Assembly: GCF_036365525.1 (NCBI RefSeq)
Contig: NC_090377.1
Location: 67,136,301 to 67,200,300, forward strand
Length of the DNA stretch: 64,000 nt
Reading direction: 5' to 3'
Source: Heterodontus francisci
Taxonomy: Eukaryota
The translations under genes were made by a program, and so were the position numbers. Positions 1,276 to 56,865 of the stretch are shown here, in pieces. Each line of letters begins with the position of its first letter. Positions within the stretch are counted from its first letter, which is position 1. The notes beneath the pieces were generated by a model. That model ran no database searches and was not told where the DNA came from. It saw only the letters and a list, made by a program, of their open reading frames with translations.

Positions 1276-3444
1276 AATGACTGAAGGCATTGGATACTGC
1301 AAAGGCTAAGGGCCCTGACAGTATTTCGGCAATAGTACTGAAGACTTGTGCTCCAGAACTTGCCGCGCCCGTAGCCAAGCTGTTCCAGTACAGGTACAAC
1401 ACTGGCATCGACCCAGCAATGTGGAAAATTGCCCAGGTATGTCCTGTCCACAAAAAGCAAGACAAGTCCAACCTGGCCAATTATCGCCCTATCAGTCTAT
1501 TCTCATATATCAGTAAAGTGATGGAAGGTGTCATCAACAGTGCCATCAAGCGGCACTTGCTTAGCAATAACCTGCTCAGTGACGCTCAGTTTGGGTTCCA
1601 CCAGGGCCACTCAGCTCCTGACCTCATTACAGCCTTGGTTCAAACATGGACTAAACAGCTGAACTCAAGAGGTGAGGTGAGAGTGACTGCCCTTGACATC
1701 AAGGCAGCATTTGACCGAGTATGGCATCAAGGAGCTCTAGCAAAACTGAAGTCAATGGGAATCAGGGAGAAAACCCTCTGCTGGCTGAAGTCATACCTAA
1801 TGCAAAGGAAGATGGTTGTGATTGTTGGAGGTCAATCATCTCAACTTCATGACATCAATGCAGAAGTTCCTCAGGGTAGTGTCCTAGACCCAACCATCTT
1901 CAGCTGCTTCATCAATGACCTTCCTTCAATCATAAGGCCAGAAGTGGGGATCTTCGCTGATATTTGCACAATGTTTAGCATCATTCACGATTCTTCAGAT
2001 ACTGAAACAGTCCGTGTAGAAATGCAGCAAGACCTGAACAATATCCAGGCTTGGGCTGATAAGTGGCAAATAACATTCACACCACACAAGTGCCAGGCAA
2101 TGACCATCTCCAACAAGAGAGAATCTAACCATCTCCCCTTGACATTCAATGGCATTACAATCACTGAATCCCCCACTATCAACATCCTAGGGGTGCAGCT
2201 CCAACAACACTCAAGAAGTGACGCCATCCAGGACAAAGCAGCCCACTTGATTGGCACCCCGTCCACAAACATTCACTTCCTCCACCACTGACGCACAGTG
2301 ACAGCAGTGTGTACCATCTACAAGATGCACTGCAGCAACACACCAAGGCTACTCAGGCAGCACCTTCCAAACCTCTACCTCGACCACCTAGAAGGACAAG
2401 GGCAGCAGGTACGTGGGAACACCACCACCTGCAAGTTCCCCTCCAAGCCACACACCATCCTGACTTGGAACTATATCGCCATTCCTTCACTGTCGCTGGG
2501 TCAAAATCCTGGAACTCCCTTCCTAATTGCACTTTGGGTTTAGCTACCCCATATGAACTGCAGCGGTTCAAGAAGGCAGCTCACCACCAACTTCTCATGG
2601 GCAATTAGGGATGGGCAATAAATGCTGGCCTGGCCAGTGACACCCACATCCCATGAAAGGAATAACAAAAAGGCCCAAGATGCAGAAGTTCGAATGTTTG
2701 GAGTCCCTCAGCCATTTATGTCAATGGTCTTGTAAGGAGCAGGCAGAAGCTCCCACAGTACCATCCAGTGAATCCTGGGTGCAACGTTGGGACCAGACCT
2801 TATTGGATCCTCGTCTTACTCTCCAGCCATTCCAGATTAAAGTTTAACAATACTGCACAAAAATTTTAAAAGTATAAACCAACAGATATAAAATGAATAA
2901 ATTGTTGTGTTTTGACTTAGCCGAGAGTGGGTCTCATGAAGTATCTAATTAGAGGGTTCAGCTGACATTTATGCAGTTGTTCAGTCCTTGAAACTACAGC
3001 CTTGAAATTGCGCCTTAATTTTATTTTAAACAAATGATTTCAAATGCTTTATCTTTTTCTTTGCTTCAACTTATTACAAGAGAACATTTACAATACATGC
3101 AGTATCATATTTGAGCCTGTTGCAGGAAACAGATTTGCTGAACTAACTTGATCAAGTCAATGACACCCAGGTAGGTACAGTAGCCTGGCCATACTAGCCA
3201 TATAGCAGCAGCAATGTGCCAAACATCTAGCTGGCAGTGCATATCTGCATCATGCATTAGATGCCTGGGCCTGGGATTTCATTACTTTCTTCCTAGATGG
3301 TTGCTAGCAGACTAAGCCTATCCTCTGGAGTCTGGTTCGCATCAGCTTTGAAACACATAGAAACAAGACCTGAAGAGAAATACAATGAAGAACATGTAGT
3401 TACCAAGGCCTTGGAGCAGGAGACAACTAGTATACTGAAACAAG

Positions 3445-4160
3445 GGGGGGAATTTTATGCTCTCCCCTGCGGCAGGTATGGAAGCAGGGAGAGCATAAAA
3501 TCAGGTGGGATGGTAACGGAGGAGGTTCCCGCCACCTTCTCGCCTCCGCCTGTGAACAACCTTCCCACCTCGCCACCAATTGAGGCCCTTAACTGAGCAA
3601 TTAATGCCCAATTAAGGACCTCATCCTGCCGCAGCTGCAATTAGCCGTGCGGTGGGCGGCTGTTGCCGCACGGGAAGCACGGCACAAAAACTAAACAGGC
3701 TGCTTCCCAGGTCTGGGAGTGGCTCTCGTTAAAAGGCACTTAGTGCCTAAACAAGGGACCTGGCATTGGGAAGGGGAAGGGCTCCGCTGAGAGCCAACAC
3801 CCAACCCTTGCTACCGACCTGCCTACATCCCCCTCCCCTGCTGCCCACACCCCATGAGACCCCTCCTACCCTGACCTACATGTGGCCTGGACCTTGGGTA
3901 GGTACTGCTCTGGCAGCAGCCACCACCTCCGCGGTGGCACTGCTCAGTGGAACAGCTGCCGGCCTCTGATTGGCCGGCAGCTCTCCGAGGGTGGGAATTC
4001 TGGCACCAGGGTCTTTGATTCTGTGGAAGGCCGCCACTGTCCACTTAAGTACCTGATTGGCGCTAGATTCAACAGGACCTCCAGAGAAGAGGTGACACCG
4101 GTCCTCAGTGTCGCTTTATCCGCACATTGAGACCCCCGTTGCCAGCATCAAATCCCGGCA
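3445..4160. mobile_element. Harbinger-type non-autonomous element (MITE)
   Basis: Termini ggggggaatttt ... caaatcccggca, 3-bp TSD aag/aag, GC-rich interior sharing motifs with the other MITEs in the window. Confidence 0.7.
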
Positions 4161-4699: not shown

Positions 4700-5660
4700 A
4701 TCTTGGAATGTGGCAAAGCAAATTGATAAGGTAGCTAAGAAAGCTAATTCTTTTAAAATGTACCTGGACATGCACCTGAAGTGCTGTAACCTGCAAGGTT
4801 ATGGACCTGGTGCTGGAAGGTGAAATTAGATTGGGTGGCTGGTTTTCGGCCAGCACAGACATGATGGGCTGAATGGCCTCCTTCTGTGCTGTAATTTTTC
4901 TATGGTTCCATGGCTACTTGGCTTAGTAAATAGGGACAATAAATATGATAACAAAGAAGTCATGCTAAACCTTTATAAATCACTGGTTCGGCCTTAGCCT
5001 GAGTATTGTGTACAATTCTGGGCACCACACTTTAGGAAGGATGTCAAGGCATTGGAAAGGGTATAGAGGAGGCTTGGCGGCATCTGTGGGGATAGAAACA
5101 CAATTAATGTTTCAGATCTGTGACCTTTCATCTGATTTCTCTCTCTCTGTTTCTCTCTCCACACATGTTGCCAGACCTGCTGAGTATTTTCAGCATTTTC
5201 TGTTTGTATTTCAGATTTCCAGCATCTGCAGCATTTTGCTTTAGTACAAAGGACGTTTAACAAGATGATACTAAGGATGAGGGACGTCAGTTATTTGGAG
5301 AGATTTAGTAGAGAAGGTTAAGAGGAGACCCAAAAGAGGTACTGAAAATTATGAGGGGTTTTGATAGAGCAGGTAGGGAGAGCCTGTTTCCTCTAGTAGG
5401 TAGGTTGGTAATCATAGGTGATAGACTTAAAATAATTGGCAAAAGAACGAGCGGGGATATAAGGATAAACTCACAACCTAAAAGAGTAGCGGAATCAGAT
5501 TCCATAGGAACTTTAAAAAGGCAATTTGTACTTGCAGAGGATTAACTTTCAGGGTTACGGGGAAATGCTGGGGTGTGAGACTAAATTGGATACTTTTTTT
5601 CAAAGCCAGCACAGGCACGTGGGGCTGAATGGCCTCATTCTATGCCATAAGATTCTATGA
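4700..5660 (+). mobile_element. CR1/HER1 LINE 3' fragments (two tails), interrupted at 5071-5243
   Basis: CR1 ORF2 C-terminal sequence (gagtattgtgtacaattctgggcaccacactttaggaaggatg) and tails gggctgaatggcctc...ttctatg. Confidence 0.8.
5071..5243 (+). mobile_element. Penelope-associated hammerhead repeat with inverted 5' portion
   Basis: 5071-5134 is the reverse complement of the element's 5' part and ~5145-5243 is forward. Flanks gtatagagga / gtacaaagga form an 8/10 TSD. Confidence 0.7.
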
Positions 5661-6049
5661 CGTCTTATGACACAATCGTGCATTTGTTCAGGTAAATTTT
5701 ATTTACCTTGTTCCGTATGGTGTCAGAGTAACAATTCGTATATCCTGCCATAGATACAAAGGTTTTGCTTAAATGCTTCCAACTCTTTTTAAGATGCTCT
5801 AGTTATAATCTATAATCACCAACATCTCTGTAACAGTGTAGAGGATGTTCTTTATGTATGATTTTTGACTGCAGTGAATCAAAGAGCAGTTCATTTCCTT
5901 GTTTCCGTTAAAGCAGGGCTACAACTTTCTATTACTGAGTGGACATAGCCTTTGTGGAACAAAAGTAATTACTCATCATTACCAAACAAGTGATTAAGAT
6001 ACCAAGAGGAGCTGGTGGAACAATATATTCATCAAGAAAGCATCATTCG

Positions 6050-6320
6050 AGCTTGGCAGAAGAACCAGAGGTGAGATAAGAAGAAATCTTTTTATGGAGC
6101 AAGTTATTACAATCTGGAATACATTGTCTGAAAGAGTTCTGGAAGCAGATTCAATAATGACTTTCAAAAGAGAATTAGATAAATACTTGAACAGGGCGAA
6201 AAATGGCAGGGCTATGTGAAAGGGCAGGAAAGTAGTATTAATTGGATAGCTTTTTCAAAGAGCCAGCACAAGTATTGATGTGCCGAATGGCCTCTTTCTG
6301 TACTATATCATCTTATGATT
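6050..6320 (+). mobile_element. Old CR1 LINE 3' end
   Basis: ctggaatacattgtctgaaagag...gccgaatggcctctttctgtact CR1 terminus. Confidence 0.7.
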
Positions 6321-6409
6321 ATCTTTCTTCATTCACATTAATCTGTCAACTCCTCCAGTCATCTTCAACACTTGTTTGGTCCAGAATAGTTGAAATTGGG
6401 TTATTAAAA

Positions 6410-6630
6410 AAATGAACCTGTTTTTATATAGCACCTTTCACATTTTCAGGATTTTCCAACCTACTGTCTATCTGAAAAGGCAGATGTGCTTCCGTTAAGT
6501 ATCTCATCCGAAAGACAGAACCTGGGACAATGTAGCATTCCTCAATACTCCTTAAGACCATAGAAGGGTTTAAATCTCAACCTGTTGACTCACATGCAAG
6601 AGTGATACCAACTGAGCCAAAGTGACAGCA
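6410..6630 (-). mobile_element. Deu-SINE (SacSINE1-like) fragment, internally deleted
   Basis: Reverse-complemented L2-type tail (tttatatagcacctttcac), Deu core (tctcatccgaaagacag) and tRNA head (ccaactgagcca). Confidence 0.6.
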
Positions 6631-8299
6631 AGCCAAAGAGCTGAATGTTTTAACTGACGGTTTCAGGTGAGTGGCCAACATCACAAACTTATTATCAGTG
6701 ATTTCCTCTTCTTATTTGAAGATAAAACACTACTGATGCACCCACTGTTTGGTTTAGTCAGCAATCAGAATGATCTCACCCAGTTCTTGAAGCAGAGGGG
6801 TCTACGGCACTTCCATGAGGATAGAGTGCATTTCTTTGACCATCAGAAGACCCAGACCCACTAATCTCATTTTATCACCTGGTTCCAGCCAGAATTAGGT
6901 CATCCAAAATGCAGAGAACTAAGATAATTTTTTCATGTAAATAAAATGTATGAGTACACTATAAACAATAAGCATGGGATTCAAATGAAAGTCATGAACT
7001 CAGGCTAATAGTTTTATTAGGAACTTTCAAAGTGTAGGGAAATGATGGCAGGGCAATTTATTTTCTCAGCATTCACAAATTAAAATGGACCAACTGGTTT
7101 CAAGTACACTGGTTTATTATTGGCAGTTTAGGGAACAAAAACATTTTGCACTATCCCAAAGAATTTTGGATTCTGAAGCGTAACTGTATGCCAGGTCTAG
7201 AAATCTACATCAACACTTCCACTTGTGGAGACACATGCATAAGTATGTATATCTTTTCCTCTGTTCACTAATATTAATGAAAAGGTCAGTAAAAACTAGA
7301 AGATGGTTTCCCCATTAATGCTCATGTCACAAACATTTGTAAGTACAGGAACATACAAACTTTAAAACTGGATTTCATCTTAACTAGGAAAAATATACTC
7401 AGTTCTATATCTGTTGGTTATCTAGAAAAGATTAATGAAAGGAAACAGATAATTGTAACTTTGGCCAATACAGTAAAAAAACAAAAAATGCATGGAAAAA
7501 GACAGGATGTTCTGATGTATTTGATATTGTTAGATTGGCAGATAATTGATGTACAAAATATGTCCAAACTGTTGTAATAATGGAACAAAATGTAATGCCA
7601 AAAATGAGATTGAGGATCATTTCTAGAAAGGATACAAATACCTTCATTTCATTTTATATTCAGATCACAAACACTTCTGAGGCCTTGCCTTCCCTTCCCT
7701 AACCTCCTCCAGCATCATAATTTCAACTATCTTCAGCTGCTTCATCAACGGCCTTCCTTCCATCACAAGGTCATAAGTGAGGATGTTCAGTTCTTTTTGC
7801 AATTCCTCAGAAACTGAAGCAGTCTGTATCCAGATGCAGCAAGACATGGACAACATTCAGGCTTGGGCTCACAAGTGACAAGTAACATTCACGCCATAAA
7901 AGTGCCAGGTAATGACCATCTGCAACAAGAGAGAATCTAACCATCTCCCCTTGACTTTCAACCAAATTACCATGCCTGAATCCACTGCCCCCAACATCCT
8001 GGAGCCGTCATTGACCAGAAACTTAACTGGACTTAAATACTGTGGCTGCAAGAGCAGATCAGAGGCTGGGTATTCTGTGGCAAATTACTCACCTCCTGAC
8101 TCCTCAAAGCCTTTTACCATCTACAAGGAACAAGTCAGGAGTATAATGGAATACTCGCCACTTGCCTGGATGAGTGTAGCTCCAACAACACTCAAGAACT
8201 CAACCCCACGCATGACAAAGCAGCCCGCTTGATTGGCATCCCATCCACCACCTCAAACATTCACTCCCTCCACCACCAATGCACCATGGTTGCAGTGTG

Positions 8300-8515
8300 T
8301 GTTAATCATATAGTAATTGAGTATTGAATTGTATTCAGGTTGGTGGGCAACAACTGGGGATTCACTTGTGCTCCTATATATAGGAGCAGACTGTGGTTTT
8401 TGGGTTAGGAGGTGCATGTTTGTAATGTTTGTCTCTGTAAATAAAAGCTTATAAGTGTGCAAAAATTAGGGGCTCCAGTTCTATCCTTTACCACCTGGTT
8501 ATTTGGATTAGAACA
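8300..8515 (+). mobile_element. Short solo LTR-like insertion
   Basis: Starts TGTT, ends AACA with imperfect inverted ends (tgttaatc / gattagaaca), internal AATAAA near 8440, and interrupts the LINE. Confidence 0.55.
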
Positions 8516-8543
8516 ATGGTACAATCTAGAAGATATACTGCAA

Positions 8544-9008
8544 TAAAGGCCTGCTCAGGTCACGAGAAAAAAACCCGACCCAAACCTGACAGAACCACAT
8601 CGGACCCAAGCCCGACCCAGCCCAAGTCCTTCCATTTTTTCCCACGCCCCACCTGACCCGAGCCCAACCCGACCACCGGAATGTTCCCTTTACCTACCTT
8701 GCGACTTCCAATCTTCAGGAAGCTGCAGCATGAGCGTGATGACATCATCGAGACACTCACTCGCTCACTGCGCATACTCGGAGTTTCCCTCCTTGACGCC
8801 CCGGACTCCCAGCTCAGGTAGGTTTTTTACTTTTAACACTTCTTGCTGTGTGTGTCCGACCTGGACCCTGCCTGACCCAGACCCGGCCCGACCAGGACGC
8901 TGCCCGACCCGACCCGAGCCCGAACGCTGGACCCAGAAGAGCAACCCCACCCGAACCCGACACATGTCGTCGGGTCCCACCGGGTTCGGGTTGGGTAGCA
9001 GGCCTTTA
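8544..9008. mobile_element. hAT-type MITE with CCCGA subterminal repeats
   Basis: Perfect 12-bp TIR taaaggcctgct / agcaggccttta, 8-bp TSD tactgcaa / cactgcaa, many cccga/tcggg motifs. Confidence 0.85.
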
Positions 9009-9339
9009 CACTGCAAGAACCCACTAAAGCTTCTTCAACAGCACCTTCCAAACCCTCAACCACTACCATCTAGAAGAACAAGGGCAGTAGGCACATGGGA
9101 ATACACCACCTGCAAGTTCCCTTCCAAGTCACCACCATCCTGACTTGGAAATATATTGATGCTCCTTCACTGTTACTGAGTCAAAATCCCTTCCCTATCA
9201 GCAGTGTGTGTGTACCTACACCACATGGACTGCCATCTTCTCAAGGGCAATTAGGGATAAGGATTAAATGCTGGCTTTGTCAGCAACCCCTACATCCCAA
9301 GAACAAGTAAAAAAAAATCCTAAATTCTGGATTTGTCTG

Positions 9340-9630
9340 TCTCTGCACTCCTAGCTATCCCCCACCCAGTCTTTCCCCAACTATTAGTGGCTGTGCTCCC
9401 AGTCACCTAGGTTCCACTCTTTAGAATTCCCTCCCTAAAGCTCTCCCTTTCTCCACTTCCTTCTCCTCCATTCAGATTCTTCTTAAAACCCATGACTCTG
9501 AACAAACCTTTGGTCACTACTCGTAATAGTTCCCTGCTTGGGTCAGCACCTATTTTTTTCCTTACACCTCTGTGAAGCACTTTTGGATGTCTTGTACATT
9601 AAAGAGACTATATAAGTTGTGGCTGTTGTT
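9340..9630 (+). mobile_element. L2 LINE 3' end
   Basis: gaattccctccctaaagct...tgtgaagcacttttggatg...ctatataagttgt L2 terminus. Confidence 0.7.
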
Positions 9631-10673
9631 AGTTACTTGTCTACTTAGATAGATAGATAGTTCTTGCAGTGTCCAAGTCAACTTCTGACTTTCAACAAAG
9701 TGATAGATTAACTGGCCAGTCACTCATTTGCTGTTTGGCGGATATTGCTATGAGTACATTAACTTATGTGCTTGCCAACATAACAGTTCAAAATTAATCC
9801 ATTAACTGTAAAGTGTTTTTGGACATCCTGAAGATGTGATAAGGCATCATATAAATACATGTTTATTCTTCCTTTATTTATTTACAGTTTAAGATGAACA
9901 TAAGGTATGATCAGAACAAGTATTAATAATAATAGAATTAATAAAATAAAGTGAGAGACACAAACACCCACACACAGACAAAAGATTGAAAAGGAGAGAG
10001 AGAAGTTTGAAGCTACATGATGGAGAATAATTATTTGATAAGCTTTTTCTTGTTCAGGCATGTGAGAGGCATGTGAAAGGATCCTTCAAGATATGAGTAC
10101 AGTGTTCAAGTCTGGGATGGATGTGGGCCTTATTGTGCGTAGAAAGGTAAGAGAAAATATGTTTGGCACATAAAAGAAAACCAATCTTCCAGCAATGGAG
10201 GAAATGTGGGAGTTCCAGCGAAGGTAAACGTTGAAATGTTTGTTTGATTTGTGTGAGATATGGAGAAAAATTGTGCCTTTGAAAAAAATGAATTAAGTCA
10301 AGGTGTGGATTTTTAACTCGGATGGGCAGGAGACAGGAAGAGGGTCAATGACTTCCTGCATTCAGCCAAGGTGAGTGCTATGTTCCAGTGCTCTTTTCTG
10401 GGGTTTGGATGTTACTACAGGGTGTGTGACATGGTGAGGGTGCCACTGCTAACGCGACGACAGACAGGTTATGACCTCATCATGACAGATTCATTGCTGC
10501 ATCTGGGAAACAAGCCACCTTCGTTCATAGCTCAGCCCCAGTGAATCCCATTACAGCGTGCGTCAGCATGAGATACATGAGATCCCCCAGTTGGTGACAA
10601 GTGGCCTATAGTAGCAGAACAGTCATGGTGAAAAATATGCCAATTTATAATTTTATCATGCTTCCTTTCGCAG

Positions 10674-12199: not shown

Positions 12200-12760
12200 G
12201 ACATCAGGGTGGCTGAAAGCAGGTCATTATGAGATTGTCTTTTGCCTCCTTTGCACGTCACTCAATATGTCTGGCTTCCATTGTCGAGTTACCATCATCC
12301 ATTGCTGCTTGCTCCTGTCTCTACTCTGTGCCCTCCTAGTAAGAGGAAGATTGCCGCTCAGGCATATCTTCCTCATGTACTGCCTTCCCCCCTCTATAGT
12401 GCTAGATTGTACAGAGCACAGCAGACCACACCGATACGTGGGAACCTCGTTGGGGCATAATGCAGGACTCCACCAGATTGATCGAGGCAGCAGAACCTCA
12501 TCTTCAGCAGCCCAATGGCTTGCTTGATGGCAGCACGAGTGGAGCCATGGCAAGTGTTGTACCTCTCATCTGCTGCATTGCAAGAGCTCCTTGCAGGTGT
12601 CAGAAGCCATGTCTTCAATGGGTAGCCCCTGTCCCCAAGAATCCATCCCTGAAGGTGAGCAGGGGGGTTGAAAAGCTGAGGCACCTGGGACCATTGGTGC
12701 CACCAGCTTTTAACAGTCGCAAAGCTGAAGACATGTGAATAATGCACGTCATTCACAAAA
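12200..12760 (-). pseudogene. Harbinger DDE transposase (HARBI1-like) C-terminal remnant
   Basis: [18 protein letters not shown]...[33 protein letters not shown]......[10 protein letters not shown], then an acidic tail. Confidence 0.9.
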
Positions 12761-13519
12761 TCACGGTCCAGTCATTAAATCAGGAACAATTATATTTAAA
12801 TTCATGTCAAACAGAATTTCACCAATTTAAATTAGGTTGCTGTCATGTCGGGGCATCAATACCTCGATAGTACTTCCCTACCTCTAACAAAATCAGAACA
12901 CTACAGAACGGTGCCGGGTTTCGGGGTGGTTGGCTCCGCAGTGGTTCTCCATCACCCCCACACCACTGAACCTGCCTTAAATGGCAGTACAAAATTCAGC
13001 CCATGACTGCAGACCACACAGAGAACATTTGAAACATTTGGAGGGGCAAAGTCCATAGCAGGGGAGGCCATGACTTTCCTTCTTTAGCCCAGAGGAGCAT
13101 TCCAGGTCTTGCTGACATCGCAGAACAAAGTAAAAACATTCACTAACTCGGCACATCTCAACTCTCTTTAGCCTAGTGGTGATCTCCTTGCTCTGGCCTG
13201 AGTCAAAATCACAGGTGATCACCCAGAAACCTGACTCAAAATTGCAGTCAGCGTCTCTGGATGACTGTCAGGTAAGTAAGTAACCCAGGGCATTTTAACT
13301 GTTCACACATCTGGTTTCTGCTGGGCCAGTGAGGTTAAAATCCTCCCAAAATTTTCATTGTCTCTCGAAGGCATGGAAAAAATGTTGGCGTTTTGTTCAT
13401 TCCCTGAGAGGAATGGTACACTGAAGGTACACATTCTGAAGAAGTTATCAGCAAGATATAAATAAGGTATCAGAAGATTAATAATATGGAGAAAGTCCCG
13501 AAGAACTCATGAATTTCAG

Positions 13520-21413: not shown

Positions 21414-22306
21414 TGTTTTATGACTGAGGCTGGAGGAATGCATCTTCTTTCTCTAGTCCCACTTCTCCATGAGTCACAACATATATTTAAATGCTTTACC
21501 CAGTTACTGGTATAGCCAATTATATACTTTATTTTAATTTCAGAATAAAATCCACCAACCAGGTTTCTTTAATAAACAACAAAAGTATTCATTTATTATT
21601 AAACAAGAATTAGTCAATAAAGATGCAAAGCTTTAACACACAATTTGAAATATGACAGTAAAGATATATATTCCCTTCTAAGTACCCAACACACACACAA
21701 ACACACACCAATTAAAGGAAAAATAAAGATGCTTTGGCCAAAGTACTTGTTAATTCTTGAAGAAAAAGGATGATATGTTATATTCCAGATGGCATACAGT
21801 CTGGTGTCCGAGTACATGTAGACAGGTCACTGGGATCTTTTCAGAAGCAGTTCGTTCAGGAGATGTCGAGAAGAAGTCTTCCAGAAGCTTCTCAGGCAAA
21901 ATGCTGCTTCAGTTTCTCTATTTCTTACAATTGATTCTCAGGGTTTCTCAAAGAGGTGAAATAAGATGAGCTGGGTGCTTCTCTCTTAGCAGGCTTACCC
22001 CCCCAACTGACTCAAAGCAATCTTCAAAATGAAAGCAATTCTTGACCACCATAAATCATGACATGTCACTTCTCTGTAAACAGCTCCCCCTAGTCACTAA
22101 GGCTTTTGCCGTTTACTTGAGCTTTCTGTTTACTTAGCTGAAGGCTAAGTAAACAGAAAGCTCAAGTCCCAAAGTATTTTCGGTGATCCTTTAAAAAAAA
22201 ACATAGTCCAGCACCTATTTAATCACTTCAATCCTCCAAATGAATACTACAATCTGCAACCACGAGTCCTCAAAACATTTTTAAAAATAGAAGCACTTTC
22301 ATAACA
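21414..22306 (-). mobile_element. Solo LTR (Gypsy-like)
   Basis: TGTT...AACA ends (tgttttatga / tcataaca), poly(A) signals on the minus strand, no internal coding sequence. Confidence 0.6.
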
Positions 22307-27443: not shown

Positions 27444-28015
27444 ATATGATTCCTTCCCCCAAAGAAACATGCTCTCTATTTTTTTGTCATTACAGTCTCA
27501 GTCAATCAAGCTACATATCACGCCATTCAGAGTCATTTCTGATTGGTCAGAAGTGACATGGTAATTTAGGGGAGGATGATACCATTGTTTATGAAACAGA
27601 TTTATTTGTAATTATTTCCACAAAATAAACACATGAACTTAGTAAAAAAGGAAAGTGTATAAGCTGCCTGGCTTTCAGCCACATAGACAATCTTAAAACC
27701 TGTAATATTATATTTCATATTCTGGATAAAATGATTCAATATGTTCATTCCATCAACAATAGTTATGCTTTGTCTTAGCCAAACAATCAGAACCTAACTT
27801 TCTACACACAGGCATATTGCTGAAATGACATTTCAATTACAGTATTCTAAACACCAGCATGAGTGCTGTAAGGCTTTCATATACAAATATAAATAATTCG
27901 GAGTTTTGAAGTTATCAAGACTTGTCCAAAATTTGCTGCAGATACTGCTTCAGAGGTCAGCTATCTCATCCAGACATGTAGTCAGTATGCTTGTGGCCAT
28001 TGTGGTAGCATAGTT

Positions 28016-29344
28016 CTTTTGGGCCTCCTTATCTCGAGAGACAATGGATACGCGCCTGGAGGTGGTCAGTGGTTTGTGAAGCAGCGCCTGGAGTGGCTAT
28101 AAAGGCCAATTCTGGAGTGACAGGCTCTTCCACAGGTGCTGCAGAGAAATTTGTTTGTTGGGGCTGTTGCACAGTTGGCTCTCCCCTTGCGCCTCTGTCT
28201 TTTTTCCTGCCAACTACTAAGTCTCTTCGACTCGCCACAATTTAGCCCTGTCTTTATGGCTGCCCGCCAGCTCTGGCGAATGCTGGCAACTGACTCCCAC
28301 GACTTGTGATCAATGTCACACGATTTCATGTCGCGTTTGCAGACGTCTTTATAACGGAGACATGGACGGCCGGTGGGTCTGATACCAGTGGCGAGCTCGC
28401 TGTACAATGTGTCTTTGGGGATCCTGCCATCTTCCATGCGGCTCACATGGCCAAGCCATCTCAAGCGCCGCTGACTCAGTAGTGTGTATAAGCTGGGGGT
28501 GTTGGCCGCTTCAAGGACTTCTGTGTTGGAAATATAGTCCTGCCACCTGATGCCAAGTATTCTCCGAAGGCAGCAAAGATGGAATGAATTGAGACGTCGC
28601 TCTTGGCTGGCATACGTTGTCCAGGCCTCGCTGCCGTAGAGCAAGGTACTGAGGACACAGGCCTGATACACTCGGACTTTTGTGTTCCGTGTCAGTGCGC
28701 CATTTTCCCACACTCTCTTGGCCAGTCTGGACATAGCAGTGGAAGCCTTACCCATGCGCTTGTTGATTTCTGCATCTAGAGACAGGTTACTGGTGATAGT
28801 TGAGCCTAGGTAGGTGAACTCTTGAACCACTTCCAGAGCGTGGTCGCCAATATTGATGGATGGAGCATTTCTGACATCCTGCCCCATGATGTTCGTTTTC
28901 TTGAGGCTGATGGTTAGGCCAAATTCATTGCAGGCAGACGCAAACCTGTCGATGAGACTCTGCAGGCATTCTTCAGTGTGAGATGTTAAAGCAGCATCGT
29001 CAGCAAAGAGGAGTTCTCTGATGAGGACTTTCCGTACTTTGGACTTCGCTCTTAGACGGGCAAGGTTGAACAACCTGCCCCCTGATCTTGTGTGGAGGAA
29101 AATTCCTTCTTCAGAGGATTTGAACGCATGTGAAAGCAGCAGGGAGAAGAAAATCCCAAAAAGTGTGGGTGCGAGAACACAGCCCTGTTTCACACCACTC
29201 AGGATAGGAAAGGGCTCTGATGAGGAGCCACCATGTTGAATTGTGCCTTTCATATTGTCATGGAATGAGGTGATGATACTTAGTAGCTTTGGTGGACATC
29301 CGATCTTTTCTAGTAGTCTGAAGAGACCACGTCTGCTGACGTGG
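28016..29344 (-). mobile_element. 5'-truncated RTE-clade (RTE/BovB-like) LINE, very young
   Basis: Uninterrupted RT frame, short 3' UTR, and a perfect 101-bp flanking duplication (27915-28015 and 29345-29445). Confidence 0.95.
28066..29344 (-). CDS. RTE reverse transcriptase C-terminal part (5'-truncated, open frame)
   Basis: GVKQGCVLAPTLF, LLFADD, FTYLGS, LLYGSEAW, RLRWLGHV and C-terminal CxxC...HxxxC finger (CSTCGRACHSRIGLYSHSRRC). The frame stays open upstream of Met 29253 to the junction. Confidence 0.9.
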
Positions 29345-29419
29345 TCAAGACTTGTCCAAAATTTGCTGCAGATACTGCTTCAGAGGTCAGCTATCTCATC
29401 CAGACATGTAGTCAGTATG

Positions 29420-29825
29420 CTTGTGGCCATTGTGGTAGCATAGTTACTGGGTTAATAATCTAGAAGCTGAGATGAATAATCCAGAATCAAGAGTTCAAAT
29501 CGCACTGCAGCAGCTGGGAAATTTAATTTCAGTTAATTAAATAAAAAAAAGTCTAGTGTCAGTCATGGTGACCACCTAACAACTGAATTGTTGTATAAAC
29601 CCATCTGTTCATCTTTAGAGAAACAAATCTGCTGTGCTTATCTGGTCTGGCCTATATATGACTTTAGACTGACAGCAATGTGATTGACACTTTTAACTTC
29701 CTTCTGAAATAGCCCAGCAAGCCACTTAGTTGTGTTCAAGAAAGTATTACACCACCACCTTCTTAAGAGCAATTAGGGATGGGCCTTACCAGCAATACCC
29801 ACATCCTATGAATAAATAAAAAGAA
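29420..29825 (+). mobile_element. tRNA-derived SINE with Meta-domain-like core and the 3' tail of the CR1-group LINE
   Basis: B box gagttcaaatc, core acccatctgttc...tttagagaaacaaatctgctgtgcttatctggtctggcctatatatgact, and tail gcaattagggatggg...cccacatcctatgaataaa matching 2601-2665. Confidence 0.7.
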
Positions 29826-29974
29826 ATGGCAGGCCACCTAAGAATCAAAGTTTAAAATTGAAGCTTGTCAGTCATATCTTGATGCTTTCCTGCTGCTACC
29901 TTATTTCACTTTGATTTAGTTCCATCAGATATTTCTCTTGTGCAGCGTGCCAATGACCACTGCAGTAAGCAAGC

Positions 29975-30720
29975 CCTTGCACACTGTGAACTGAGGGAGT
30001 GCTGCACTGGTGGAAGTGCCCTTTTTCGGATGAGATGTTAAACCAAAGTCCATCTTCCCTCTCAGGTAGACATAAGAACAGAAGAATATATGAAATAGGA
30101 GCAGCAGTAGGCCACCTGGCACTTCTGGCCTGCTCTGCCATTCCACAAGATCATGGCTGATCTTTCACCTCAACTCCAATCACCTGCACTATCCCCATAT
30201 TCCTTAAATCCCTTAGTACCCAAAAATCTATTGACCTATGTCTTGAATATACTCCACAACTGAGCATCCACAGCTCTCTGGGATAGAGAATTCCAAAGAT
30301 TCACAATCCTGAGTCAGAATGTCATGAGTTCAAGTGCCACTGCGGGGACCTCAGCACATAATCGAGCTTGACACTTCTGTGAAATACTGAGAAGGTGCTG
30401 TCTTTCGAATGAGACATGAATCCGACATCCTGTCTTCACCCTCAGGTGGATGTAAAAGATCCATGGCACTATTCGAAGAAGAGAAAGTGGGTACTCCTCA
30501 GTGTCCTGAACAATATTCATCCCTCAACCAACATCAGTTAGAAAGATTATTTGGTCATTATCACTTTGCTGGTTCTGACACCTTGCTGCGTGCAAATCGG
30601 CTGCCATGTTTCCTACATTAAAACAGTGACTACACTTCAAAAGTACTTAATTGGCTGTAAAGGAATTTAGGATGGCTTGAGGTCATAAAAATGCTATATA
30701 ACTGAAAGCCTTCTCTTTCT
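29975..30720 (+). mobile_element. Deu-SINE copies (29975-30070 fragment; 30315-30720 near full length) separated by a minus-strand CR1 tail (30071-30314)
   Basis: Deu core gatgagatgttaaacc / caggtggatgtaaaagatccatggcactatt, L2-type tail, and reverse CR1 tail aggagcagcagtaggcca. Confidence 0.8.
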
Positions 30721-34195: not shown

Positions 34196-34811
34196 GGCCA
34201 TGGGGAAGAGACTGTCGCCCACCTCTGTCTGGAATGTGCCTTTGTAAAGCAGGTCTGGAAAGAGATGCAGTAGTTTTTGTCCAGGTTCACTCTGAGCAGC
34301 TCTAGAATACAGGACTCTGCTTTACAGGCTGTTCCCAGGGACACACACCAAGATAAACATTAACTGCTGCTAGTGGACCATCAACTCAATGAAAGACGTA
34401 CTTTGACCTGCCGAAACTTGCTGGTCTTCCGGTGCTAAGAGCTGACCACGACCGAGTGTTGCAGGCTGGCACATTCCAAGGTCCAGGACTATGTGCTGAT
34501 GGACGCACTAAAGCTTGGGGCAGCCGTCGCCAAGGCTCAATGGGGAAAGGCCACTATGTAAGGCCCTCCCACCATAGTATACTGAGGGGCTTGAACCTGT
34601 GTAAAACCCCTCAGGCTATATGCACTGGAGAATATTTTACATGAAATGTAAATATACAATGTAAATATAACCTGTAATGGCAAGTGTTGTGAAGCACCTC
34701 ATGTACTGTATTGAAAGAAACCGATCTGTATTGCATTTTATGTAATGTCAAATTTGAACTGTTATGTAATGTAATTTTACAAATTTTATGAATAAAGTAT
34801 ATTTTTGGAAA
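34196..34811 (+). mobile_element. Tx1/L1-group LINE 3' end
   Basis: GEETVAHLCLECAF (zf-RVT CCHC), AATAAA plus A tail, TSD aaaatccaccc / aaaatccactc. Confidence 0.85.
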
Positions 34812-35924
34812 AAAATCCACTCTGCTATATTTATGTAGCTTTTTAAAAAAATATATTTTGACACTGTGTGTAGTAGAATGTGGAAGATTACAGTTAAGGC
34901 ATCATGGTGGCGGGATAAGAATTTAACTCTCCTTGTTTAGTCAGAACAGAACAGGGAGCAGTTAAAATGGAGTGACTCCGTTGCTGCATATTTGCACTTT
35001 CAATTTCACTGGTTTTGGTCAGATAAGTCTCTGTCGGAATCACACAGGAGCGTTTTCCATTAATGCTAATTGAGGTCTATGATGTCAATAGGACCCAATG
35101 GTGTTCTAACTGGAACCTGAGCAGGGAATCTGCCTTGGCTTTCCTGGCAGGCTGAAGCAGGTCAGCAGCTGGTACAATGGACAACAAGGGGAATTACTCA
35201 TTGAAGCATGTCAGTAGTCTCTCAAACATTGTGACCAACTGTAAGAAGTAGGGATGTTAGTATTTATAGAGTCCTTATGCATATCTTAACACCATTACAA
35301 TCCATGATCAAATTTTACATTTTCTTTCTCTCAATCCCTATGATCAAGATTACTGAGAAATAAATCAGTGCTGACATATTAGAAATAAGGAAACCTTAAA
35401 CAACATCTTATCTACCAGAACCATATGTAATACAATTTTATCAACCAGGCAGAAATGCATAATTACAACCTGGATCAAGTATTCTTTCTTTTGAAGTAAA
35501 TTGAGAAGCTTTTCTTATAATGACTTTAGTATTGATAAATACTAGGCCCTATGCAAAGAATATCTTCATGCATCTTGTATTCAGGGAGACCAAGTCAAGT
35601 TAAAATCTATTTAGATCCATCCAAAATATTTCATGGTTAATAACTAAAGTAACTGTCTTGTTTACAAAGATGAAATAGTAGATTAGATTAGTTCAGGTTT
35701 GAACAAATATCTCTGAGAATTTATTATTCTCATGGAGAGAAACATTTGGAATAAGTAGGCAATAAAGAAAAATTATCCTGAGCAAGGCCCTGATTTTCAA
35801 AGAGTAATTAAATATGTGTCACAACTGAATAGTTTGTGTGAAAACCAAACAACAAGATAGATCAAAGATCTTTAAAACAAAATTGGAATGTTATTTGATA
35901 ACGAATGTAGTTGATGCTTCTCTT

Positions 35925-36435
35925 TTTTATTCATTCTCAGGATATGTGCATCACTAGCAGAGCTGACATTTATTGCCCTGCCTTAGTTTCCCTTGAGAAG
36001 GTAATGCTGAGCCCTCATTTTAAACTGCTGCAGTCCATGTGGTCAAGGGATTCCCACAGTGCTATTACGTAGAGTTCCAAGACTTTGACCCGGTGATAAA
36101 GGAATATATCCAAGTCAGGATGGTGTGTGACTTATAGAGGGGAGCATAGAGATGGTGGTGCTCCCATGCACCAGGTGCCTCTTCTAGGCTCTGGAGGTCA
36201 AGAGTCTTGGAAGTGCTGCTGGAAAAGCCTTGTTGAGTTGCTTCAATGCATCCTGTAGATGGTATGTACTGCAGCCATGGTACACTGGTGGTGGAGCCAG
36301 TGGATGTTTAAGCTGGTGGATACCTTACCAAAATAGCACAGTACTTTGTCCTGGATGGTGTTGAGTTTCTTGGGGGTTATTGTAGCTGTACCCATGCAAG
36401 CAAGTGGAGCATATTCCATCACACTCCTGACCAAC
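35925..36435 (-). mobile_element. CR1-group LINE 3' end (family of 1-2670)
   Basis: VRSVMEYAPLACM...KLNTIQDK and the reverse-complemented tail. Confidence 0.8.
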
Positions 36436-36816: not shown

Positions 36817-38228
36817 AATGTATGGAATAAATCAAGTTTATACTGTTTGATAATTGAACTTTCTATTATAAAAATTGACAAAAATTACAGGAAATATGTG
36901 GTTGGTAACAGTCTTTAGTAACCTCTCCTGCTGTTCATTAAATCTTATCATGTGAGCTGTGTATCAATGATGGAATGTTCTCCACTCGTGAGGTACATTT
37001 AGTCATCAGTCAGGTGACTAAAAACTTAAGATTAGTCTTAAAAGTCTGACATAACACATCAATAATATATTAAGTTCAATACACAGGTCAGGGATTTCAT
37101 TGAAAACTCATTTCAAGTATCTAAATTACCTCTTACAGTTGGTGATGTTGTGATATGTATTTTCAAAATTGTAAGTGACACATTTCCCTGTTGCAGTCTA
37201 TGGCCTACACATAACTGCTATTTCATATTGAGAGTAGATCGCGCTGTGAATGAATCATCTGACCACAAGGTTCTCACAAATTGTTCAAAATGTTTACTGA
37301 TTTTTTCTTCATCCATCAGATTTTCTCAGTAACTGAGTGAAGTCCACTTTGGTAGGAAACATAAAAAAGCAGAATAATTTTTGAATGGTGAATGGAAATG
37401 TTTGCATTTGTCCTTATAAATGAATAACAGAAAGTTAACATGCAGGTACACCAAGCAATTAGGAAGGCAAATAGTATGTTAGCCTTTGTTAGAAAGGGAT
37501 TGGAGTATAAGAGTAAAGAAGTCTTACTACCATTATACAGGGCATTGGGGAGGCCACACCTTTTGCATCTTTGAATGCCTTATGTAAAGTTTTTATTTGA
37601 AGGTGTTAGTCTCTTCCAAAAGCCTGTATTGCACTTGACCTCTTTGCTCATTGTTGTGGGTCTATGAAGTGAATTTGGATTGTGCAGCCTGAGCATGTAC
37701 AGTGCACCTAATTTCCTGGATGAATCATATTGTACAGTTTCATTAGATTCCTAAAAATTTCTTCTAAAGACTAAAGGGATTCTCGATGGTATCCTGGCCA
37801 GTATTTACACATCAACATAACAGATTATCTGGTCATTATCACCTTGCTGTTTGTGGGATTGTGACGACAATTCAAAGATACTTAGTCAGCTGTAAACCAC
37901 TTCCAGACATCCTGAGATTGTGTCAGGTGCAATATAAATATAAGTCTTACTTTTCCTATTTTCAAAATCATCGAAAGAAGAATTAGAAGACAAATTTCAG
38001 CATCCTTATTCAGGTAAAATGTTTATGTTTTTTAAACAGAGAGGCCGTGTGGGTGTGTGTGTTAGAAAAAAAACAGACTGCTAATTACACGCCCAGTGTA
38101 CCTTTGTTTTGGAGCAAAGGAGTTGACTTTGATGTGAGTCCTCAAATTCTCCATCTCTCTACCTCTCTTTCCTCTTTTATGACACCCCTTAAAACTGACC
38201 TCTCACCTGTCCTACATCACCTTATGTG

Positions 38229-38831
38229 CCCACTTCCTTCTGGAATGTGTCTTTGCAAAGCAGGTGTGGAAAGAGATGCAGTGGTTTTTGTCAAGGGTCA
38301 TCCCAAGCAGCTCTGTAACACAGGAGTCTGTACTCTACGGGCTGTTCCCAGGGACGCACACCGAGATAAACATCAACTGCTGCTGGAGGACCATCAATGC
38401 GGTGAAAGACGCTCTTTGGTCTGCCCGAAACTTGCTGGTCTTCCAACGCAAAGAGTTGTCCACGACCGAGTGTTGCAGACTGGCACATTCCAAAGTCCAG
38501 GACTGTGTGCTGAGGGACGCACTAAAGCTTGGGGCAGCCGCTGCAAAGGCTCAATGGGTAAAGACCACTGTGTAAGTTCCTCCCACCAAAGCGAACTGAG
38601 GGGCTGGACCCATGGAAACCCCTCGGGTTGTATACACCAAATATGGTTTTGCTGTAAAATGTACCTGGCAGGTAAAATGGAATGGAAGGGTTGTGGGGCA
38701 ACTCACTCCTGTATGGAAGAAAACTGATTTCCTTTGCACTTTTCGGAATGTCAACTTGGTGCTGTTTTGAACTTTTTTGTAATTTTTATTTTACAGATTT
38801 TTATGAATAAAGTATATTTTGGGAAAACAAA
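38229..38831 (+). mobile_element. Tx1/L1-group LINE 3' end inserted in an L2 tail (38145-38950)
   Basis: ORF 38264-38575 homologous to 34196-34560, AATAAA tail, TSD atcaccttatgtg / atcatcttatgtg. Confidence 0.88.
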
Positions 38832-55699: not shown

Positions 55700-56865
55700 A
55701 GAAGGGGTGTCCTTGGCCATGGACATTTTTCTGCATGAGGAATTGGAGGAGGTGATAAGACCAGGCTTGGCAGGACCAGTTGTTGCAGGAGAGAGGGGGA
55801 CAGGAGGAACAGGAGTGTGAGGAGGGCTGTCAGCCGGAGGCTCCATCCACCCAGGGTCTTCAGAGAGCACTACCTCTACATGTGCATGACCCAAGAATTG
55901 TGCATGAGAAAACTATGCTTTACCAAGGAGGTCATCACAGAGATCTGTGGCCTCCTGGAAGGAAGGCTCAGACCTCGCAACACAGCCAGGACTGCATTGT
56001 TTGTGGTGGTCAAAGTCAGAGTAGTACCTGTTTTTTATGCTATTGGAACCACCTTCCAGACTGCCACAGATGATGGAAGTCACATCTCACAATCCTCTGT
56101 GCACTTCTGCATCAGGGAGATCTCTGTTGCTCTATACGCTCTGAGGAATGACTATATATTATTCCCTATTGCCAGAGAAGACCAGAGGCAGAAAGCTCTA
56201 GGATTCAACAGGATTTCAGGATTCTCCATGGTACAGGGAGCATTTGACTGTGAGCCCTTCATTTAAACGCTTAGGTGTTCAGAAATAGGAAGGGAATCTG
56301 TTTCCTCAGTGTGCAGCTCATGTCTGACAATTGGCAGCAAATCATGCAGGTGAATTCCTTCTATTCAGGAAGCTGCCACGATGAGATAGTCATTCATCCC
56401 ACAGATCTTTGAGGCACAACCCAATGGGCATGGCTGAGACTAGGTAACAAGAGATACTCTCTAATCATGGCTCATGACTTCCCTGAGAAATCCCCAAACA
56501 CCAGCTGAGCACTCATACAATGAGTTACACTGAGCCACCAGGAATATCATTGAGCAGATAATTGGGTTCCTCAAGCAGAGGTGTAGATACCTAGAATGTT
56601 CAGGAACTGCCCTTCAGTACTCAGCTGAGAGGATGTCCAGACTCATGGTGAGTTGCTGCATGCTCCACAATCTGTCTATCTTGAGAGACCAGCTGTTACC
56701 AACAATTATGCCAGAGGGTCACACACAGCAGTCACAAAAGGAGGAGGAGGAGGAACTGAAAAGGGAGGGGGGGAACCATCGGGAAGCAGCAGAGACTTCC
56801 AGGTAGACGGCCTGCTTCTGGAGGGACGCTTGCCGCCATCTAATTGAAGAGTGTTTTTGAGAGAC
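55700..56865 (+). pseudogene. Harbinger DDE transposase (HARBI1-like), frameshifted
   Basis: ISQSSVHFCIREI, GF.MVQGAFDC, NRKG, YSGSCHD, TRNIIEQIIGFLKQR, CCMLHNL and an acidic tail. Confidence 0.9.

Follow-up and report, generated by a model that had tools for sequence, protein, structure and literature searches.

A perfect 101-bp direct repeat flanking a 5'-truncated RTE element in the horn shark genome: a probable long target-site duplication and its junctions

Results

The RTE copy and its relatives

The window analysed here is a stretch of 64,000 nucleotides (64 kb) from contig NC_090377.1 of the Heterodontus francisci (horn shark) assembly GCF_036365525.1. It contains a minus-strand element of 1329 bp whose two ends are directly abutted by copies of a 101-bp sequence that is not part of the element, and the right-hand copy runs into an old SINE (Table 1). 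By its sequence, the element is an RTE-type LINE, in agreement with the sequence-only reading of this DNA. The 425-codon frame, open up to its stop codon at 28066-28068 on the minus strand, yields a Pfam RVT_1 match (E 4e-14) that identifies a non-LTR reverse transcriptase (RT), and the RT relatives are 67-71% identical to this copy as against 24-33% to the other LINEs of the window. The 120 best long relatives listed are 62-71% identical to it and mostly 1040-1060 aa in length, with endonuclease and RT domains; a single ORF of ~1000-1070 aa combining an APE endonuclease with the RT is expected of RTE-clade LINEs, the window copy being truncated. An endonuclease-plus-RT protein accompanied by an unusually short 3' UTR has been described as the RTE layout (PMC1291365), and only 50 nt lie between the stop codon and the element end in our copy. 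Of an A/T-rich tandem-repeat 3' end, the window copy keeps only an A-rich remnant, while a relative from a bacterial record (L001) ends in CAA repeats; since the UTR matches L001 up to the very start of these repeats, we regard the 3' end of the window copy as native.

Among relatives that bear a name, five proteins of Heterodontus francisci come closest, at 82-96% identity over the first 90 residues. Another relative, P0164, carries the name F52C9.6, presumably the C. elegans RTE-1 protein. A tblastn search with four full-length relatives found no second RTE copy in the 64-kb window. The horn shark protein P0151, annotated as 'transmembrane protein 138 isoform X1', is wholly RTE-derived over its aligned length and is probably a misannotation. 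The window RTE protein is also 62-72% identical to elements of lancelet, crustaceans, molluscs and a carp, which is high for hosts so distant; horizontal transfer has been reported for RTEs.

Table 1. Features at the insertion locus, numbered from the first base of the window
Feature	Positions	Strand	Basis or remark
Probable duplicated target sequence, 101 bp, at element 3' end	27915..28015		exact repeat
Probable duplicated target sequence, 101 bp, at element 5' end	29345..29445		exact repeat
RTE-type LINE by sequence, 5'-truncated, 1329 bp, start within RT domain	28016..29344	-	frame, Pfam, homologs
Open frame, conserved Asp of K-A-F-D motif to stop	28066..29346	-	no internal stop or frameshift
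3' UTR, 50 nt, complete versus L001	28016..28065	-	A-rich remnant end overlaps first duplication bases
Perfect hairpin, 9-bp stem, 4-nt loop, in first-strand cDNA, at truncation point	29325..29346	+	
TTGA microhomology, 4 nt, host end and RTE family sequence	29345..29348	-	horn shark relatives
Putative first-nick site, T/A at duplication start, T at -9, -10, -12, -13 (Tn-TA-like)	29445..29458	-	
Mirror-image Tn-TA-like site, candidate second nick	27904..27915	+	0-1 nt from far duplication end
Old SINE, start approximate	29420..29826	+	box-like motifs, LINE-shared tail

A perfect direct repeat at both ends of the element

As the sequence-only reading had noted, the two 101-bp copies are identical throughout and directly flank the RTE; the next base is mismatched at either side, and the match cannot be extended by even one base (BLAST E 2.5e-46). 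The runner-up exact direct repeat in the 64 kb measures 36 bp and lies inside a dispersed repeat, and among the 76 exact repeats of at least 12 bp with a spacing of 100-8000 bp there is no other isolated long flanking repeat. At the 5' side, the family sequence shares no more than 4 nt with the repeat before the two diverge, and the 3' end is native; hence, the repeat lies outside the element. A direct repeat at both element ends and outside the element is the arrangement of a target-site duplication (TSD), and we consider it very probable that the 101-bp repeat arose as a duplication at the RTE insertion.

An ordinary TSD is 10 to 20 bases long. The other TSDs of the window had been given as 3-16 bp. 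No other isolated flanking repeat approaches the 101-bp size. The range itself was covered at 14 approximate boundaries of elements of non-RTE families, where the best flanking repeats are 5-9 bp and near chance. The TSDs of other families in the window say nothing on the RTE. The suggestion that such an event is a route for duplicating host sequence is true in a minor way, the duplicated DNA comprising ~75 bp that recur nowhere else in the window, together with ~25 bp from the head of the SINE.

The target SINE

The SINE placed at the insertion point by the sequence-only reading is supported by an A-box-like motif (29424-29435) and a B-box-like motif (29491-29501), which lie 67 nt apart and were matched to box patterns fitted after looking, and by a tail that is 69% identical over 106 nt to a LINE 3' end at 2565-2671 (E 2e-9). 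Its head is indeed partly duplicated: the last ~25 bp of the left 101-mer are an orphan SINE head that includes the A-box-like motif. The first nick fell ~25 nt into the head, and the SINE is still whole on the right of the insertion because the duplication is long. The two box-like motifs agree with the 'tRNA-like' description of the head, but Rfam returns no tRNA in 27800-30600 at E values up to 5, and hence the label is a putative one that rests on the box motifs. Rfam matches at gathering score are absent from the whole window, the SINE head has no significant fold, and no second copy of it occurs elsewhere in the window. The SINE may be SacSINE1-like (SacSINE1/Deu-SINE). Its box-like motifs and LINE-shared tail fit the SacSINE1 layout (PMC5499810).

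The 3' junction and the putative first nick

RTE TSDs are described as starting with an A after a T, about ten bases below a stretch of T's (PMC6007223, PMC13295347). The 3' junction of the shark copy, judged by its bases, would fit this published nick signature loosely: the three consecutive T's described for Bov-B are absent at the first-nick site, and it is for this reason that we call the fit to the Tn-TA signature loose. A site resembling that of the first nick is found at 0.2-1% of all positions in the window, according to which rule is applied.

The 5' junction: microhomology and hairpin

At its other end, the copy starts inside the conserved K-A-F-D-L-V-S-R motif. Here, the horn shark protein P0151, which runs in the +1 frame at this point, and the in-frame P0246 together admit one unique solution for the family codons, with which only 1 of 20000 shuffled control peptides is compatible. 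With the family codons fixed by these two horn shark reading frames, a 4-nt microhomology follows, TTGA being common to the RTE family sequence and the end of the host repeat; the microhomology suspected earlier is thus real. Out of 300 duplication lengths that were possible, 4 offer a 4-nt match, and none of these is nearer than 101. A longer, imperfect pairing of the cDNA end with the host end was considered and rejected (rank 116-296 of 996).

These junction features bear on two explanations that dispense with a duplication at insertion. The first is an assembly artefact, a mis-join repeating a flank, which would account for the perfect identity and for the coincidence of the length with 101, a common short-read length. 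Yet the window is without any N, and each junction has a hallmark of its own, namely the native 3' end with its nick signature at one and the codon-register microhomology at the other; we regard an artefact as very improbable. Still less credible is a tandem 101-bp duplication that was already present when the RTE inserted bluntly at its junction. Blunt LINE insertions do exist, but this course of events needs the exact junction base, an insertion with no TSD of its own and two copies that are still identical, and it leaves the microhomology unexplained.

The hairpin reported near the 5' junction is present, although its left edge is at 29325, the earlier 29324 being one base off. It folds at -10.6 kcal/mol as DNA and is the only perfect stem of at least 7 bp in the 1331 nt examined; the RTE truncation point coincides with the base of this, the strongest short cDNA hairpin of the copy. 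The stem is completed by the base at 29342, 3 nt away from the junction, where the horn shark relatives have another base. When this base is put back to the family state, the hairpin still ranks at the top of ~1300 cDNA windows at sizes of 22, 25 and 30 nt, but it no longer does so in cDNA windows of 60 nt or in RNA windows of 25 nt and more; the hairpin is unexceptional in RNA windows of 40-60 nt and, in the family state, in cDNA windows of 60 nt.

The change at 29342 turns Leu into His. Among homologs with the motif (from 354 proteins fetched), 291 of 303 have Leu and 1 of 303 has His, and all 4 in-frame horn shark copies have Leu. The changed base sits in the stem arm that is made second by first-strand synthesis, and a single corrected base in the second-made arm is the trace expected of a short snap-back of the cDNA on itself. 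Thus, this hairpin-perfecting change suggests a cDNA snap-back, a detail of the 5' junction to which we give even odds. Of the 4 microhomology bases, the snap-back end alone accounts for no more than 2. The His may also be a subfamily state, or a later mutation or repair, given that the copy has three further residues that none of the horn shark copies shows.

The far end of the duplication and the proposed mechanism

On the plus strand, a TTTT at 27904-27907 is followed by a TT/A step at 27913-27914, one base away from where the repeat begins. This inverted, endonuclease-like site satisfies three of four count rules and the TTT-run rule, and fails the strict rule derived from the first site. 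Its occurrence within 1 nt of the boundary has a chance probability of 2-3%, and up to 7% under the loosest rule, it being understood that all junction statistics were chosen after looking and concern a single event. It is the first TT/A step on the plus strand to the left of the nick; another loose site lies nearer, at 72 bp. Going by these motif matches, the inverted site would modestly favour a second nick at this position.

Hence, we propose, with a probability of about 55%, that one target-primed RTE insertion made the duplication by way of a first nick, a hairpin stop, a second nick and fill-in. More specifically, the RTE endonuclease would in all probability have nicked the plus strand of the empty site at TT/A between 29445 and 29446, and the A-rich RNA end would most probably have primed the cDNA at this nick. 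Copying of the cDNA ended after ~1330 nt, at the point where the strongest of its short hairpins has its base. The cDNA end may have folded back, with its own first arm serving briefly as template, whereby the stem would have been made perfect. The minus strand may have received the second nick at the mirror-image endonuclease site, at a distance of 101-102 bp as opposed to the usual 10-20 bp. The 3' end thus freed would have annealed to the end of the cDNA through 2-4 nt and served as primer for the second strand, and strand-displacement synthesis on both strands would have copied the 101 bp between the nicks.

A downstream second nick belongs to the standard TSD model, but the choice of the second cut is called unclear (PMC2881922, PMC2666801), and this lack of clarity speaks for the main rival explanation, in which the cDNA itself primes the copying and there is no second nick. 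In that case, the free 3' end of the cDNA would anneal through microhomology to minus-strand DNA lying 101 bp upstream, in a fork, a gap or a displaced loop, host DNA would be copied back to the first nick, and the looped strand would be fixed by replication or repair. The product is identical to that of the second-nick route, no position nearer than 101 offers the cDNA end a 4-nt match, and R2 cDNA ends have been reported to prime both on nearby target DNA and on themselves (PMC11371274). However, cDNA-primed copying does not predict an inverted endonuclease-like site at the boundary (2-3% by chance under the rules used), and the extended homology that would favour invasion is not found between the cDNA end and the host end. 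We hold it to be a substantial alternative that is nonetheless appreciably less probable than the second-nick route. Thus, the earlier claim of a second-strand cut ~100 bp away gains modest support from the inverted Tn-TA-like site at the far end, while its force is lessened by the fact that cDNA copying without a cut gives the same product.

The orientation of the far-end site also bears on a scheme with two RTE insertions in the same orientation, 101 bp apart on different alleles, which unequal crossing-over or a chimeric assembly brought together. The final structure would again be identical, but two insertions within 101 bp are needed where a single RTE copy is found in 64 kb, and the far-end site faces opposite to what a same-orientation insertion requires; we judge this scheme improbable.

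Age of the copy

The frame of the RTE copy is intact and its CpG observed/expected ratio is 0.55, versus 0.28 for the window as a whole (a value this high is reached by 16 of 627 segments of its size), for which reasons we take it to be young relative to its neighbours. The stronger claim that the insertion is very recent is not borne out. The 101-mer is without CpG, and its identity bounds the divergence only to <1.5% per copy at 95%. At a rate of 1.0-1.1 x 10^-3 per site per million years (PMC5499810, which quotes a slower rate too), the copy could be up to ~14 million years old, and older still if the slower rate applies. At 4 of the 211 residues that can be compared, it departs from every horn shark relative, and one 98%-conserved site has undergone a CpG-type change from Arg to Cys, which suggests some decay. 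It is on account of the loose 1.5% bound and of this sign of decay that 'very recent' goes too far.

Discussion

Relation to known long target-site duplications

The shark copy resembles the Bov-B and RTE1_LA elements in its short 3' UTR, its A-rich end, a TSD that begins with A after T, and T's about ten bases upstream (PMC6007223, PMC13295347). It differs from them in the 101-bp TSD, the surveys of these elements having covered 10-49 bp only (PMC6007223, PMC13295347). The accessible portions of these surveys do not mention an inverted site at the far TSD end for Bov-B or RTE1_LA, and one survey of RTE TSDs names the signatures of fish RTEs as still to be studied (PMC6007223/PMC13295347). Long TSDs are likewise not mentioned in the portions seen of PMC4408412, PMC8620236 and PMC4859970. 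Among other RTEs, the TSD is given as 10-12 bp for SR3, 10 bp for HzRTE-1 and 13 bp for AviRTE.

Our search, which left subscription literature largely outside and so does not prove an absence, found no report of a long TSD in any RTE. The sequence-only reading cites C. elegans RTE-1 for unusually long TSDs in the RTE clade, and Youngman et al., in 1996, are said to have described C. elegans Rte-1 as flanked by a direct repeat of ~200 bp; this element is of the RTE clade too, though of a distant lineage. Gladyshev and Arkhipova, in 2009, reportedly described an 'exceptionally long' TSD for the rotifer rDNA element R9. This is also a non-LTR element with a long TSD, but R9 is site-specific for rDNA, whereas the target here is an old SINE.

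Outside these lineages, ZfL2-2 produced a TSD of 1228 bp in 1 of 25 wild-type insertions, and the TSDs of L1 are given as 'several to several hundred' bases, with very long ones in HeLa cells (PMC2912911, PMC2666801, PMC1291365). The shark copy has in common with these a 5'-truncated LINE, a microhomology and a rare, very long TSD; those elements are of different clades, and the L2 insertions and the HeLa L1 insertions were obtained in cultured cells, whereas ours is an RTE in genome sequence. The putative snap-back has a parallel in insertions made by the R2 protein, where snap-back 5' junctions form as priming from the cDNA 3' end takes place, before the 5' end is joined, on the cDNA itself or on target DNA close by (PMC11371274). 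Those were made by an engineered R2 in human cells, in contrast to the shark case, where the snap-back would span at most 5 nt and is visible as one corrected base.

Implications

Set beside these cases, the shark RTE insertion is genuine and rare, and of a kind already known; it shows with unusual clarity an infrequent but familiar result of LINE insertion, and nothing points to a host function. Its interest lies in second-strand cutting and 5' joining, which have been described as unresolved (PMC2881922, PMC2666801): a long TSD holds the two cut sites far enough apart for each motif to be read alone. One could further conjecture that TSDs of 50 to several hundred bp are a regular product of this RTE family, the second cut being made by its endonuclease at any inverted Tn-TA site that it meets and truncation being governed by cDNA hairpins by way of snap-back. 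We think this unlikely; were it true, the long tail of TSD lengths would be invisible to surveys limited to 49 bp, and genome data alone could answer whether the element's own endonuclease cuts the second strand. The two junction features of the shark event allow sharp whole-genome tests, and its value is that of a lead.

Other elements observed

A search of genome contigs gave 12 loci (L001-L012) with distant, eukaryote-type RTE fragments inside bacterial assemblies, which are probably host contamination; L001, for instance, with 70% protein identity to the window RTE, is annotated as an Alcanivorax protein. No usable TSD was found at these loci by exact repeats (12 of 12 scanned) or by self-BLAST (8 of 12). 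A 69-bp repeat in L004 was rejected as an AT microsatellite; L005, L006, L009 and L010 were set aside as full of tandem repeats, and several other contigs as too short. L008 has a direct repeat of 440 bp (3262-3701 and 5580-6017, 82% identical) around a decayed RT fragment, which is not at the RT 3' end, as well as an inverted repeat of 572 bp (99%) at 6084-9767.

Within the window, a decayed LINE occupies 138-2671, with an RT frame at 1281-2291, and its 3' end is common to the tail of the target SINE (29733-29826) and to 9227-9318 and 35922-36010; from this sharing, the LINE and the SINE are likely to be a LINE/SINE partner pair. The segments 34217-34815 and 38228-38830 are direct copies, 78% identical and 4 kb apart, that resemble LINE 3' ends, presumably L1/Tx1-like, and are not a TSD. 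A remnant of a DDE_Tnp_4 transposase lies at 12394-12771, and a frame at 55739-56266, which has no Pfam match, is Harbinger-like by eye. Finally, a perfect inverted repeat at 22115-22167, with 24-bp arms and a 5-nt spacer and with neither a second copy in the window nor an Rfam match, may have come about as a fold-back scar or may be a small MITE-like element.
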